Source: a virus (Duplodnaviria; Caudoviricetes). From it: 63,688 nt of DNA. The stretch's first letter is position 1. Every line of letters starts with the position of its first letter. The notes beneath the pieces were generated by a model. That model ran no database searches. It saw only the letters and a program-made list of their open reading frames with translations, and was not told where the DNA came from. Below, in pieces: positions 57,290 through 61,349 of this stretch. The stretch lies in the IMG/VR virus record IMGVR_UViG_3300027365_000013, positions 1-63,688 of that record; one strand, written 5' to 3'. The translations under genes were made by a program, and so were the position numbers.

Positions 57290-57841
57290 TTATTTGTCAT
57301 CATTGTTAACAGGATCGAGCCCGAGTTTTTCACGCTCTTCTTCTAGACTCATAGAATTTGATAACAGTTTATATTTATCATAATCCCATTCATCAATGAT
57401 TTTTTCAAATAAATCCGCACTATAGTCTTTACGAAACTCAGTATGCTCAACACCGTCGTTGTCTACATACTTGTATTTGTTTCCGACCTTTTCCAAGACC
57501 CCTAGATCCAATAGGTAATCAAAGAGCCCAGAGTAACGATCTAGACCACTATCGAAGCGTATATGGATTTTACAAGTTTCATATGCTCTACCATACCGTG
57601 ATTTCATGATTTTAATCGCAGATTTAATACCGTGAACATCGGATGTTTTCTTACCATCTTCATCTTCTTTGAGTTTAAGTTTTTGACTAGCAACTACAAT
57701 TGAAGATGCAAAGATGAATCCCGAATTATGAGATATTACACCACCATCAAGAATATAATTTCCAGTATCTTCTACTTGGATATCGTATACGGGTTTAATA
57801 TCTCTATTTTTTGTTACACTTTTTATTTTTATAGTTTTCAT
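57290..57841 (-). CDS. uvsX: UvsX C-fragment: split intein IntC (39 aa) + C-extein (144 aa)
   Basis: VYDIQVE..GNYIL.GG.ISHN|SGFIFASS...KSR...GLDRYSGL; GGAG RBS before ATG 57841. Confidence 0.9.
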   Translation of the reverse strand: MKTIKIKSVTKNRDIKPVYDIQVEDTGNYILDGGVISHNSGFIFASSIVVASQKLKLKEDEDGKKTSDVHGIKSAIKIMKSRYGRAYETCKIHIRFDSGLDRYSGLFDYLLDLGVLEKVGNKYKYVDNDGVEHTEFRKDYSADLFEKIIDEWDYDKYKLLSNSMSLEEEREKLGLDPVNNDDK

Positions 57842-58021
57842 AATATTCTCCAATAATACTTAATAACTCTACTATAACATCATTTCTCTTTTTGTAAATC
57901 TTGCCATTCAACCTATATGATCTATTAGTTAGATACCAAACGTATACAACTTGGTATCCTCTATTATACGCAGATATACAGTTAAATAATTTATGTATAT
58001 TTATTACATAGATTATTCTTT

Positions 58022-59371
58022 TTACTTCTTTCGTTTGTTCTTACGAACAACTACTTGAACCAAGGGACTGTAAACTCCTTGGACTTCATCGTCTACTGGA
58101 TTCCAGTAAAATCCCGAAGTGCGATTTATACCTTTAACTATGTAATACCTAAGTGCTGGTAATCCATCAACTAGATGATTACTAGCGGCATTAACATCTG
58201 CATTAGCAGTATGCCCACAACAACGACATTTGAATATTTCTTTGTCTTTATTTGAGCGGTTAAGGCAATGGACAAATCCACAAGAATTACATCTTTGGCT
58301 TCTATAAGCAGATGATTGCTCAACTAACTGGACACCAGCCAGTAAAGCCATATCTTCTAGTTTATCACGTATCAATGTGTTTGTGAATCCGTTTAAAAAT
58401 TTGCTTCTCTTTTGTTTATGAAATATATTTTTTATTTCTTCTAAACGGATTTCGCTTATATCACTTAAATCTAACTGGTTTATTGTCCAGTTAATGAAAT
58501 TCTTTCTGTGTTCTACCGTTCTATTAAAGGACTTACTACCTTTCTTTTTAGTAGAAAGAGCTGTTAAAATATCCTTAAAATCTATACCATGTGCGTTGTT
58601 ACTTGATTGATATACATTGTTATTTCTATCAACTAAGGTAAGTAGTTTGTTTATACCCTGATCTATGGCTACCGTTTTGCCTACTTCTTTGATATTAGGA
58701 ATCGCTACTTTAAAACGCACTGAAATATAGTTTTCCGTTAGCAAGAACGATTTTAGTCTTTCTTCTTTCTTACTGTCCAAGTAATTATATCGCTTGTGTT
58801 TTTTCGATAGAATGAATAATTTATTCTTAGGTAAGTATCTTTTCTTATAGGTTGCATCGAATAATGAACCAAACATAAACAATAAATCAAACTCTTTTGT
58901 ATCAACCGATTCGGTCATTGATACTAAAATTGTTCCTAGCTCTGCTCCTACTTGTTTATTGATCTTGGGCTTTTTTATGAATCTGTTTTTGTATAACCAG
59001 CTATTAATAATTGCTTCTCGTGTAGTATTGCCTTTTTCTCGTGCTTTCTCTAAGGCATAACACTTCTTTTCGTATTTCTTGAGAAGCGATTTGATCATAC
59101 CGTTTGCTTGTGTGACAGCACATTTGATAGCCCGCCCAGATAGAACCAAGTCATCTGTCTTTAGTTGGTTTGTAAACGGATAGAACTTTTGTGCTTTATA
59201 CGCTGATTTGTTTTGTGTGCCTGTATTTAAGTTATGTTCCGCCCAATAGAAGTCAATAGCTCGTTTAAGTACAATACGATAGTCCCTCAAAAATATATTA
59301 AGGTGTTTTAGTTTACCAGTATTATTATCTGAGAGATAATGCTTAGTTGACTTAATTATTGTACCAGCCAT
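58022..59371 (-). CDS. tnpB: TnpB RNA-guided nuclease
   Basis: RuvC-I AIDQG, RuvC-II RLEE, Zn finger CNSCG...CRCCG, RuvC-III ADVNAA.N; catalytic D-E-D intact. Confidence 0.9.
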   Translation of the reverse strand: MAGTIIKSTKHYLSDNNTGKLKHLNIFLRDYRIVLKRAIDFYWAEHNLNTGTQNKSAYKAQKFYPFTNQLKTDDLVLSGRAIKCAVTQANGMIKSLLKKYEKKCYALEKAREKGNTTREAIINSWLYKNRFIKKPKINKQVGAELGTILVSMTESVDTKEFDLLFMFGSLFDATYKKRYLPKNKLFILSKKHKRYNYLDSKKEERLKSFLLTENYISVRFKVAIPNIKEVGKTVAIDQGINKLLTLVDRNNNVYQSSNNAHGIDFKDILTALSTKKKGSKSFNRTVEHRKNFINWTINQLDLSDISEIRLEEIKNIFHKQKRSKFLNGFTNTLIRDKLEDMALLAGVQLVEQSSAYRSQRCNSCGFVHCLNRSNKDKEIFKCRCCGHTANADVNAASNHLVDGLPALRYYIVKGINRTSGFYWNPVDDEVQGVYSPLVQVVVRKNKRKK

Positions 59372-59373
59372 AT

Positions 59374-59973
59374 CTATTCTTCTTTATGTATTTCCTTAAT
59401 GATAACTTCTGTTTTGCGTTTGGACTTCCGACTACCGTATAGTTTGGCACAGAATGAAGTAACAACAGACACTAAATCATTTACCAAATCATCTCTATCT
59501 GTTGTTGATTCATTTGCCACTATAATATTAATATTTTTCGATTTACATAACATTTCCAAGTAATGATAACCAAATCGAGTCAATCTATCTTTGTGTTCAA
59601 TAAGTAGAGTACAATCCTTATGATTTTCCAATAATGTGTTGAGTACTTTGCGGTTGTCGTTCATACCACTGGCTACTTCTTTGTATGTATGTTTAACCAC
59701 ATAGCCATTATTAGTTGCAAAATTGGTCATTCGGTCAACTTGCCTGTCGAGGTCGTCCCTTTGTTTACTTGAAGATACGCGACAATATATGATATAGTCA
59801 TTAGTAGAAACATTATCAGTAGGTGTGTCTTCTTCGACTTGGACTAGGATAGTGCCAGTTGGCAAGACTTTAGTATTTGGGATTAATCCTTTTTTATGTA
59901 AGCGAAATGCACCATGATACGAATATCCATTGTCTTTAGCCCATTGTGATAATTTTATATATTTTTTATTCAT
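59374..59973 (-). CDS. tnpA: IS607 TnpA serine recombinase
   Basis: N-terminal MerR-like HTH, YCRVSS..Q..DL.RQ, EHKDRLTRFG. Confidence 0.95.
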   Translation of the reverse strand: MNKKYIKLSQWAKDNGYSYHGAFRLHKKGLIPNTKVLPTGTILVQVEEDTPTDNVSTNDYIIYCRVSSSKQRDDLDRQVDRMTNFATNNGYVVKHTYKEVASGMNDNRKVLNTLLENHKDCTLLIEHKDRLTRFGYHYLEMLCKSKNINIIVANESTTDRDDLVNDLVSVVTSFCAKLYGSRKSKRKTEVIIKEIHKEE

Positions 59974-60012
59974 GTATATATTTAGTCTAGATACAAAAAA
60001 AGTATCAAAAAA

Positions 60013-60387
60013 TCAATAAAAGTTAAAATTTTTAAACACTAGTTGACAACACTTCTCAGTACATATATTTTTATATGTCAATAAGGAATTCTTTTTTCGC
60101 ATATCTGAGTCGCATACGATACACTTAACATATACCTGCTTTGATTTGCGCATTGCCGCTAAAGCATTTTCTTTTTTAACTTGATTACATAATTCCGAAC
60201 AAATATGTTTACCTGACGACAGGGACTGATTTTTAGGGAAAAAGCTCGAACATATAAAACATCTGACATTACCTTTGGAACGTTCAATGGCATCCTCTTC
60301 GGAATAACCTTTTTTAATCCAATATTTATAACCATACATAAAATTCCACCTCTTTAATCTATTTATCTTAATAAGAGGTGGAATCAT
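60013..60387 (-). pseudogene. Truncated N-part of a Zn-finger homing endonuclease interrupted by IS607
   Basis: YWIKKGYSEEDA resembles YYLSKGMSPEEA of the 32995 endonuclease; CxxC...CS..C twice; ends at the IS boundary. Confidence 0.55.
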
Positions 60388-60392
60388 GAACG

Positions 60393-61349
60393 TTATTTCA
60401 ATTCTTGGTCAAACGACAATATTGCATCATCGTCCGTTAGATATTGGGCTTCTCGCCATTCCCATGAGTCACCAGAGACAACTGCAAATTTATGTTCAGG
60501 TGAACACTCAAACAGTTGACCATCTTCTAGCTCTACCGTGAACGTGGGTTTATCGTACTGCCATGTTTGAATAACTTCATGATAATTATTATCATTACTC
60601 AACACGTAGTCGCCAATTTCCATTTCTTCAATAGACTTTACGCCATCTGATGTGATGATCTTGGTTCCGGCTATTAAACACCCGCCGCTAATCTTATCAT
60701 CAGGGTCAAACATATCCTGTGAGGCATATGTATGGTTGGTACATACAACACCAATATTCAGATCTGCAATTTGATTCACGAGATTTCGAACAAGAGCGTT
60801 TAGCTGCTTCGGCTTACGGCCCATATCGCCTTTCATGTCACCTTTACTAAATTGATCTACATCAGTATCAGTCAGCAACATACCAAGTGAGTCTACTACA
60901 AACAAGAAACAAGGTCTCTCTTTAGGATCAACGTCAGAATAATTATCACGATAGTCTTTTATGAACTCATGCATGATCTTACCAACATCGTTGATCATTG
61001 ATACTTGAAAACGTAACATTTTTTCAGGCGATGTGTCGATGCCAAAGTTCTTCAACCAAGCTTCATCAAGTGCGTTTTCTGTGTCAAACACAACAGGTAT
61101 GATACCACGATCCTGTGCATGTTTAACCAACATACCAGATACAATCAGTGATTTACCCGAACCAGAAGCCCCGGCAAACATAGACACCTTACTAAGGGGG
61201 ATGCCCTTATGAAAGTCTCCTGATATCAAATAGTTCAACATATAGTTTCCGGTATCTACCCAGATAGTTGGGTCATTGAAACCGTGACTAACATTTAGCT
61301 TCTTAGTAACACTAGAAGCAAATTTACTCATATCTACAGGTTTTCTCAT
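60393..61349 (-). CDS. uvsX: UvsX N-fragment (223 aa) + split intein IntN (95 aa, Cys1 at 60680)
   Basis: GASGSGKS Walker A, VDSLG, NHTY...ISGG|CLIAGT...CSPEH then stop. Confidence 0.9.
   Translation of the reverse strand: MRKPVDMSKFASSVTKKLNVSHGFNDPTIWVDTGNYMLNYLISGDFHKGIPLSKVSMFAGASGSGKSLIVSGMLVKHAQDRGIIPVVFDTENALDEAWLKNFGIDTSPEKMLRFQVSMINDVGKIMHEFIKDYRDNYSDVDPKERPCFLFVVDSLGMLLTDTDVDQFSKGDMKGDMGRKPKQLNALVRNLVNQIADLNIGVVCTNHTYASQDMFDPDDKISGGCLIAGTKIITSDGVKSIEEMEIGDYVLSNDNNYHEVIQTWQYDKPTFTVELEDGQLFECSPEHKFAVVSGDSWEWREAQYLTDDDAILSFDQELK

Follow-up and report, generated by a model that had tools for sequence, protein, structure and literature searches.

What becomes of a phage recombinase gene when a complete transposon stands between its two halves? 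The question is raised by uvsX at positions 57290–61349 (minus strand) of a 63,688-nt viral sequence, positions 1–63,688 of IMG/VR record IMGVR_UViG_3300027365_000013. This stretch, called the window throughout, is the entire viral record (completeness estimate 14%), and the isolate nearest to its phage is the 440-kb Salicola phage SCTP-2 (MF360958). An insertion sequence (IS) of the IS607 family lies in the gap of a split intein within uvsX, an arrangement that a sequence-only reading had likened to an IStron, with protein trans-splicing as the device that makes the insertion silent. We consider it likely that the locus is a decayed "fractured gene", in which a homing endonuclease gene (HEG) split the uvsX intein, the core of the HEG was replaced by IS607, and the guide predicted for the transposon nuclease TnpB matches the intact HEG. 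The earlier interpretation is partly supported by these results, and the parts of the locus that it named were all confirmed, on the minus strand, at the positions listed below.

Five minus-strand open reading frames (ORFs) of 318, 124, 199, 449 and 183 aa follow one another across 57290–61349. As the sequence-only reading held, ORFs and Pfam and PHROG matches place an intact tnpA-tnpB pair between an upstream ORF that joins the first part of UvsX to an N-terminal intein half (IntN; 61349–60393) and a downstream one that joins a C-terminal intein half (IntC) to the rest of UvsX (57841–57290). The features of the recombinase and its intein are as follows.

60681–61349, minus strand: UvsX N-extein, 223 aa, ending in ISGG (PHROG UvsX-like, E 3e-49)
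60393–60680, minus strand: IntN, 95 aa plus a stop codon, starting with Cys and carrying SPEH at what we take to be the block-B position
57725–57841, minus strand: IntC, 39 aa, ending in SHN, with GGAG at 57851–57848
57290–57724, minus strand: UvsX C-extein, 144 aa plus a stop codon, starting with SGFIF (PHROG UvsX-like, E 9e-18)

The PHROG match of the 318-aa upstream ORF to UvsX-like recombinases covers residues 4–224. We compared the locus with the best 80 of at least 600 uvsX relatives in IMG/VR, to which the N-extein is 62–68% identical (77–81% to SCTP-2; 62–81% for the exteins overall). In 79 of these 80 the C-extein follows 0–3 nt after ISGG, and in the other (L013) the contig stops before the C-extein is reached; none of the 80 has an intein, tnpA, tnpB or the ORF found in the window's gap at uvsX. 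The uvsX of phage CBB is likewise continuous and intein-less at the ISGG|SG site, and a megablast search of 57000–61700 against phage records returned no match. A conserved enzyme gene is here broken at one point into two adjacent, co-oriented ORFs and, given the continuity at ISGG in the relatives, splicing would therefore yield a canonical UvsX of 367 aa (223 + 144), which bears out the ISGG|SGFIF product of about 367 aa proposed earlier.

The intein retains its key residues, namely Cys1, SPEH, and SHN followed by a +1 Ser. Pfam Hint_2, Hom_end_hint and Intein_splicing match the upstream ORF from residue 224, and Intein_splicing matches IntC over profile positions 121–155 (its last 35), after which UvsX follows; all of these fall below Pfam's own cut-offs. 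The ORF finder starts the downstream ORF at a TTG (57853), and the ATG at 57841 has GGAG 6 nt upstream. Among solved chains the gp41-1 intein (6qaz, E 1.6e-8), a split intein from a fractured gene, comes nearest, and by its sequence the window intein is a gp41-1-like mini-intein, split, at ISGG|SG in the uvsX of a jumbo phage resembling SCTP-2, which adds a new host site for this type of split intein. At the identical site the uvsX of the closest isolate, SCTP-2 gp204, has a homologous mini-intein of about 134 aa (49% identical to IntN and 68% to IntC). In contrast to the window intein it is contiguous, with neither HEG nor IS, and it continues for about 10 residues where the window halves break; that gene also has a second mini-intein, in the P-loop, which the window lacks. 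The SCTP-2 gene itself (L001:6001-7971) is annotated as a hypothetical protein, and is a uvsX with two contiguous mini-inteins (P-loop and ISGG|SG).

A model of the complex of IntN and IntC scored 0.61, a mark that 51 of 78 solved complexes attained, as did 2 of 108 mismatched pairs, and the best of three controls scored 0.00. The model runs agree in at least 87% of contacts (partner pLDDT, the predicted local distance difference test, at least 63), with a predicted interface between IntN 222–315 and IntC 1–40. Since split inteins have already been solved, this score may reflect likeness only, rather than binding.

The gap between the two halves (60392–57842, 2,551 nt) holds more than the transposon. 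Besides tnpA-tnpB it contains what is left of a free-standing HEG: the 5' hairpin, 97 codons from the beginning of the gene and 58 from its end.

60333–60392, minus strand: hairpin over the HEG Shine-Dalgarno, core stem 60385–60373 with 60354–60342, fold −20.1 kcal/mol
60049–60339, minus strand: HEG N-terminal remnant, 97 codons, 97% identical to residues 1–97 of protein P0002 (tblastn)
57804–57980, minus strand: HEG C-terminal remnant, 58 codons plus stop, with 57980–57807 100% identical to P0002 residues 353–410

P0002 is a 410-aa protein from a 2,877-nt JGI contig, found by seeking longer relatives of the Cys-rich gap ORF, and its residues 98–352 (255 codons) have no counterpart in the window. 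The N-terminal remnant contains a WIKKGYSEEDA motif and two Cys-rich modules, and its reading frame runs 11 codons into the IS to a stop at 60015–60013. The hairpin over its start is more stable than expected (z −3.96; 0 of 200 shuffles fold as well), and the C-terminal remnant overlaps the start of IntC by 38 nt. We also considered the gap ORF as a passenger gene of the IS, and rejected this, as the HEG accounts for the first 97 codons and the IS for no more than the last 11.

The intact allele is documented by P0002 and by Logan contigs of sequencing run X3 aligned to the window (contigs from four runs, among them X2, X3 and X6, were aligned in this way, and statements about them cover the alignment rows listed). 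X3 record 15 carries the UvsX N-extein, IntN and the HEG start up to 60049, followed by 643 nt foreign to the window; X3 record 8 carries IntC up to 57980 and then 78 nt foreign to the window that join the HEG end. Translated by eye, these loose ends read LSEYKSTLNY and SDVWASDYKK, which are P0002 residues 98–107 and 343–352. A free-standing endonuclease between the halves is thus intact in P0002 and X3 and not in the window.

The intact-HEG allele of X3 has exactly the IntN stop and the IntC start of the window, and the gene was therefore fractured by the HEG before the IS landed. The idea that trans-splicing renders the IS insertion silent in the manner of an IStron is not supported in that form: what IS607 entered was just a dispensable selfish gene, lying between halves that would each be translated on their own. 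The same evidence makes it very improbable that IS607 itself broke a contiguous intein, with IS and split intein forming one co-adapted mobile unit, a protein-level IStron. The unbroken SCTP-2 intein, which has no HEG, would suit that scenario. However, HEG remnants lie on both sides of the IS, mutually in frame, the X3 allele, which has an intact HEG and lacks the IS, is fractured in the same way, and the same IS moves without any intein. With the flanking remnants and the X3 allele already contradicting it, we rejected splitting of the intein by the IS. The statement of the sequence-only reading that an RNA-guided nuclease now occupies the place of a homing endonuclease is, by contrast, upheld by the remnants that flank the IS and by the existence of the intact HEG allele.

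The kind of endonuclease that was lost can be judged from P0002. Its family comprises 3,658 proteins at E <= 0.001, and in an alignment of 60 of them D307, E318, G321, H325 and W367 do not vary at all and D349 hardly varies. A profile of the family matched Vsr structures in the Protein Data Bank (PDB; 1odg, 1vsr and 1cw0, E 0.006–0.009) and, at E 0.27, I-Bth0305I (3r3p). Foldseek searches with the AlphaFold model of P0002 (pLDDT 93) gave PvuRts1I and AbaSI as top matches, followed by Vsr and I-Bth0305I (probability 0.96–1.00, E 0.015–0.083). As judged from these residues and folds, the intact allele is a free-standing Vsr-like (EDxHD-type) HEG in the gap of a fractured uvsX. The D, E, H, D set of a Vsr-type catalytic domain is present in P0002 and absent from the window copy, where D307, E318, H325 and D349 all fall in the missing part; with the catalytic part of the HEG replaced by IS607, the window is therefore a decayed derivative of the fractured-gene arrangement.

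The gap ORF had no match in PHROGs or in JGI metagenome contigs, and in IMG/VR it matched one locus only (L092), sharing just a 19-aa WIKKGYSEE motif; phmmer of P0002 against the PDB returned nothing. P0002 found 20 loci in IMG/VR at 26–30% identity, none a close intact allele, and the exact 21-nt flank pattern did not occur in IMG/VR. A third HEG allele is represented by P0001 (99 aa, from a 1,560-nt ENA contig), which matches the window ORF at 70 of 71 residues through residue 71 and from there on differs from both the window and P0002. The IMG/VR contig L092 has a fractured gene of its own (L092:5493-8659): an SbcC/Rad50-like gene is broken in the P-loop by an intein whose split is atypical, the N-part being short and the C-part long, and the ORF in its gap has four WIxKGYSEEEA repeats and seems itself broken into two ORFs.

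Dassa 2009 (PMC2677866) describes a closely similar organization, in which a phage DNA-metabolism enzyme is broken once, with IntN closing the upstream ORF and IntC opening the downstream one, and a Vsr-like HEG lies between the halves with a hairpin over its start. In the passages of that paper on "fractured gene" loci, the endonuclease type was found in half of 26 loci, a hairpin precedes the HEGs, and overlaps of 6–69 bp between the HEG and the downstream start occur in 15 loci; the window has both hallmarks, with a hairpin ahead of its HEG start and with 38 nt shared by the HEG end and the downstream start. The differences are that the host gene is uvsX, which those passages mention only as a neighbouring ORF, and that the HEG core has been lost to IS607, whereas the loss stage described there, gp41-7, is without HEG and without a replacement. 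P0002 also resembles I-Bth0305I and the EDxHD HEGs (3r3p; PMC3239194) in its D, E, H, D positions and predicted Vsr-like fold. It differs, as far as that work's account of the enzyme goes, in being free-standing in an intein gap rather than located in a recA intron and in its N-terminal array of WIxKGYSEEEA-type motifs with Cys-rich modules, and the window copy has no nuclease domain.

The element that took the place of the HEG core has the composition of IS607, a serine-recombinase TnpA gene followed by a co-oriented tnpB.

57978–60048, minus strand: IS607-family element of about 2.07 kb, with the right-end core GT (57979–57978) counted in
59374–59973, minus strand: tnpA, 199 aa, IS607-type serine transposase (Pfam Resolvase, E 2.8e-21; PHROG transposase, E 6e-49)
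58022–59371, minus strand: tnpB, 449 aa (Pfam Cas12f1-like_TNB, E 8.5e-14; TnpB/Cas12f structures, E about 4e-13)

TnpA matches the solved IS607-family TnpA chains 6dgc (E 3e-30) and 6dgb (E 7e-26) over the catalytic domain (residues 61–192). It also matches a PHROG helix-turn-helix DNA-binding protein at E 9e-05 over the whole protein, with the best stretch at residues 1–24, no single stretch passing the threshold. In TnpB the RuvC D-E-D triad is kept, as proposed earlier: D237, E311 and D392, together with the zinc-finger cysteines C361, C364, C382 and C385 (CxxC...CxxC), occupy invariant columns of an alignment of 15 sequences (A3). Both genes, like the right-end RNA elements, run in the direction of uvsX, and tnpB is present in a single copy, with no second one in the record.

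Copies in other contexts, 92.6–99.6% identical, show that the IS607 element is a discrete, recently mobile unit. X2 record 3 (2,767 nt) contains window positions 57978–60052 with 9 differences in 2,075 nt, between unrelated flanks of 492 and 200 nt. Run X3 has identical IS pieces plus two further right-end flanks, and its intact-HEG alleles part from the window at 60049 and 57980. Of 43 loci with tnpB in metagenome contigs only one, L106 (a JGI contig), is close (92%); its right end, the only part present, is 92.6% identical, the match stops at 57978, and this copy is intergenic, adjoining a large ORF.

The termini were placed by aligning 34 right ends (the window and 33 relatives), all of which show a hairpin, AACT, and then two variable bases (GT, CT, AT, CC or GC); the window reads AACT-GT at 57983–57978. 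On the left, the flank consists of GT plus the element's own core in the window, the X2 copy, L120, L005, L102 and L004, and of GT-CT in the CT-core relatives L006, L094, L133 and L126. The pattern of the family, no terminal inverted repeats or target duplication (no repeat search of the ends was made) and one core dinucleotide shared by the two junctions, fits the window, where GT stands at 60050–60049 and at 57979–57978. From these conserved ends and matching flanks the element was therefore placed at 60048–57980 plus the GT core, with GTGT as a putative transposon-adjacent motif (TAM).

Two observations on related elements stand apart. L006 and L008 lie on one 368,758-nt IMG/VR contig and are two related IS607 tnpB copies, 33% identical to that of the window, of which only L006 shows an adjacent tnpA in the fetched locus; two copies on one large viral contig indicate that this IS607 subfamily recurs in very large phages. 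A contig of run X6 matches the window to about 60018, inside the IS's left end, and then diverges for at least 255 nt, which may reflect a related element with a different left end.

These ends define the predicted RNA parts of the system.

60049–60052, minus strand: putative TAM GTGT, its last two bases GT being the putative recombination core; present in the X2 copy and in the IS-less X3 allele
58060–58082, minus strand: candidate omegaRNA scaffold hairpin in the 3' end of tnpB (RNAalifold, 34 right ends)
57980–58018, minus strand: right-end terminal hairpin (58018–57984) plus AACT; 7 of 200 shuffles fold as well
57958–57977, minus strand: predicted 20-nt guide/target segment immediately beyond the right end, its position taken by analogy from IS607 TnpB

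The hairpin in the tnpB 3' end has eight predicted pairs, six of which keep pairing through changes on both sides, which fits an omegaRNA scaffold; in L106 an A-U pair of the terminal hairpin has become G-C, a compensatory change noted by eye. The predicted guide falls within the HEG 3' remnant. Its first 16 nt are unique within the window and absent from the other 134 fetched loci, among them the 80 uvsX relatives, SCTP-2 and CBB. X3 record 8 does not differ from the window over 57762–57980 and its next base completes GTGT; the intact-HEG allele therefore has the putative TAM and a perfect 20-nt target. The donor right end reads CTGT at the TAM position, by which TnpB would avoid cutting its own element. 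With a guide that lies in the HEG remnant and is absent from the other 134 loci, any action of TnpB would therefore be limited to HEG-bearing fractured alleles or its own excision joint: it could re-home into or convert HEG-bearing alleles, and not an intein-less uvsX or one with a contiguous intein. The suggestion that TnpB might drive the fractured locus against related alleles could thus hold for intact-HEG alleles, which carry the putative TAM and target, and not for the 134 other loci without a guide match; measured against the refuting condition given with that suggestion, the claim is narrowed towards a safe-haven insertion with allele-limited homing.

The comparison of uvsX across relatives gives four arrangements: intein-less (79 of 80 and CBB), contiguous intein (SCTP-2), HEG-fractured (X3) and IS-replaced (the window). 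The history we propose takes them in that order, with P0002 placed beside X3. An HEG would have invaded the contiguous mini-intein and split it, with the N half owing its stop codon, and the C half its start codon, to the invading element. UvsX would still be made, the halves being translated separately and joined by protein trans-splicing into the 367-aa protein, and the later IS607 insertion would be tolerated because it sits inside a dispensable selfish gene. TnpB and an omegaRNA from the right end would use the 20 nt beside that end as guide and GTGT as TAM, cut the excision joint of the element and intact-HEG alleles, which share GTGT and the identical target, and recombinational repair of a cut allele would install the IS allele. 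Both ends of the 765-bp deletion in the HEG are GTGT sites of the intact gene, and the loss may have come about through IS copies inserted at two such sites followed by recombination between the copies. A further step, in which IS genomes cut and convert intact-HEG uvsX alleles during mixed infections, with the RNA-guided nuclease displacing the protein-guided one while trans-splicing spares the recombinase, is put forward tentatively and we regard it as rather doubtful.

Several observations weigh against this account. On the side of the endonuclease, Pfam gave no significant match to the gap ORF or to P0002 and so does not name it, and none of the Foldseek matches of the model reached E <= 0.001. 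On the side of the nuclease, an Rfam scan of 55000–63688 found no family at threshold, neither omegaRNA nor group I intron (three sub-threshold matches, to the unrelated families sraA, RT-6 and sR9, are at chance level); the TAM was deduced from seven left-end flanks, two of them in the window and the X2 copy and the others in five distinct relatives; the target in the intact allele was read from contig-to-window alignment rows only; and no precise excision joint occurs in the contigs of the four aligned runs. As to expression, a single RNA run was found, in which 7% of words are present. The IS puts 2 kb between the uvsX halves, with possible polarity on the C half. A promoter-like site at 57898–57871 means little, as the region has 21 such sites against 19.3 expected in shuffled sequence. 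In addition, among the rows listed, the window's own IS-flank junctions are bridged by no contig from another study, and no HEG-family or intein neighbour was detected at 51 related IS607 loci, whose six-frame ORFs were compared with the HEG profile and the intein pieces.

The 2-kb insertion and the ordinary frequency of promoter-like sites speak for a uvsX that is dead, its halves unspliced or its C half unexpressed through polarity of the IS, with the host or another gene supplying recombination. We consider this improbable: both halves are open and full length, the intein key residues are intact, the exteins keep the identity to their relatives given above, IntC has its own GGAG and ATG, no terminator-like site occurs on the minus strand between the halves, and the halves are predicted to dock. 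The junctions bear on a different possibility, that the IS repeat was misjoined into the uvsX locus by assembly. Among the rows listed only the likely source run supports the window's junctions, and the IS does occur in several contexts; against a chimera, both flanks come from one HEG, in the same orientation and frame, and abut the IS exactly at the family end motifs (GTGT on the left, AACTGT on the right), and flanks and IS share only 3–4 nt, too little to mislead an assembler. We give this explanation hardly any credence.

The absence of a HEG-family or intein neighbour at any of the 51 loci bears on how the IS and the fractured gene came together: nothing points to a specialised association, and the placement of IS607 here was probably accidental rather than part of a specialised lifestyle. 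It also favours a plainer alternative, to which we give a real chance, though somewhat less than even, in which the IS is a pure safe-haven passenger that landed in the HEG by chance and whose TnpB only restores the element after excision by TnpA, with no competition between alleles. The intergenic position of the L106 copy beside a large ORF and the absence of the 16-nt guide match from the other 134 loci agree with it. Against it, intact-HEG alleles with GTGT and the identical 20-nt target coexist with IS copies in run X3 and, if TnpB is active, cutting of those alleles would follow from the mechanism known for the family, as far as the published accounts cited here describe it. The decayed fractured gene with a predicted guide matching the intact HEG remains the reading we favour.

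How does this arrangement relate to known systems? According to the sections of Zedaveinyte et al. on the IS607 IStron CboIStron (10.1101/2023.11.20.567912), its TAM, TGGG, contains the GG core and its omegaRNA ends in the core. The window element shares with the IStrons described there a serine TnpA, a core dinucleotide at both junctions, a TAM that includes the core (apparently GTGT here), a predicted omegaRNA that would overlap the right end and finish in the core, and an insertion that would leave the host gene unharmed. It differs from an IStron in that the Rfam scan of 55000–63688 finds no group I intron, and in that harmlessness would be owed to the position in a selfish gene, itself within an intein that was split beforehand, rather than to RNA splicing borne by the element. 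A 2026 review (PMC13565253) lists TnpB action on transposon-less co-infecting phages or plasmids as one type of homing; there it is a table category, and the portions of the review that treat it give no fractured-gene or HEG-displacing example. Fractured-gene architecture, IS607 and TnpB homing are each already known, and the literature searched yielded no IS that lies within an intein gap or has taken the place of a homing endonuclease. The locus allows one gene to be compared in four stages (no intein, contiguous intein, fracture by the HEG, HEG replaced by IS607), making the gene-breaking model of Dassa and a further step of decay concrete for uvsX, and it suggests that additional mobile elements can gather in fractured-gene gaps at no expense to the host gene. 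It is also a natural, testable case of a phage TnpB predicted to target a rival selfish element, with TAM, guide and target allele readable from the sequence.

Other parts of the window deserve mention. Next to the locus, and convergent with the C-terminal part of uvsX, a 468-aa ORF of unassigned function (55851–57257, plus strand) has a stretch of about 95 aa that is duplicated exactly, in tandem. The large-subunit gene of ribonucleotide reductase (RNR) is also in pieces, at 38519–43280 (minus strand). One ORF (39113–41848, minus strand) has an intein C-part at its start, an intein N-part at its end and, within it, an intein that contains LAGLIDADG; 60 nt downstream, with no gene in the gap, a second (38519–39052, minus strand) consists of an IntC ending in SHN|S followed by the RNR C-terminus, and a 480-aa ORF (41838–43280) overlaps the upstream end of these pieces. 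The RNR small-subunit ORF (36769–38261, minus strand) covers Pfam profile positions 7–168 of 281 only and is directly followed by an HNH endonuclease ORF, which makes it probably another endonuclease-interrupted gene.

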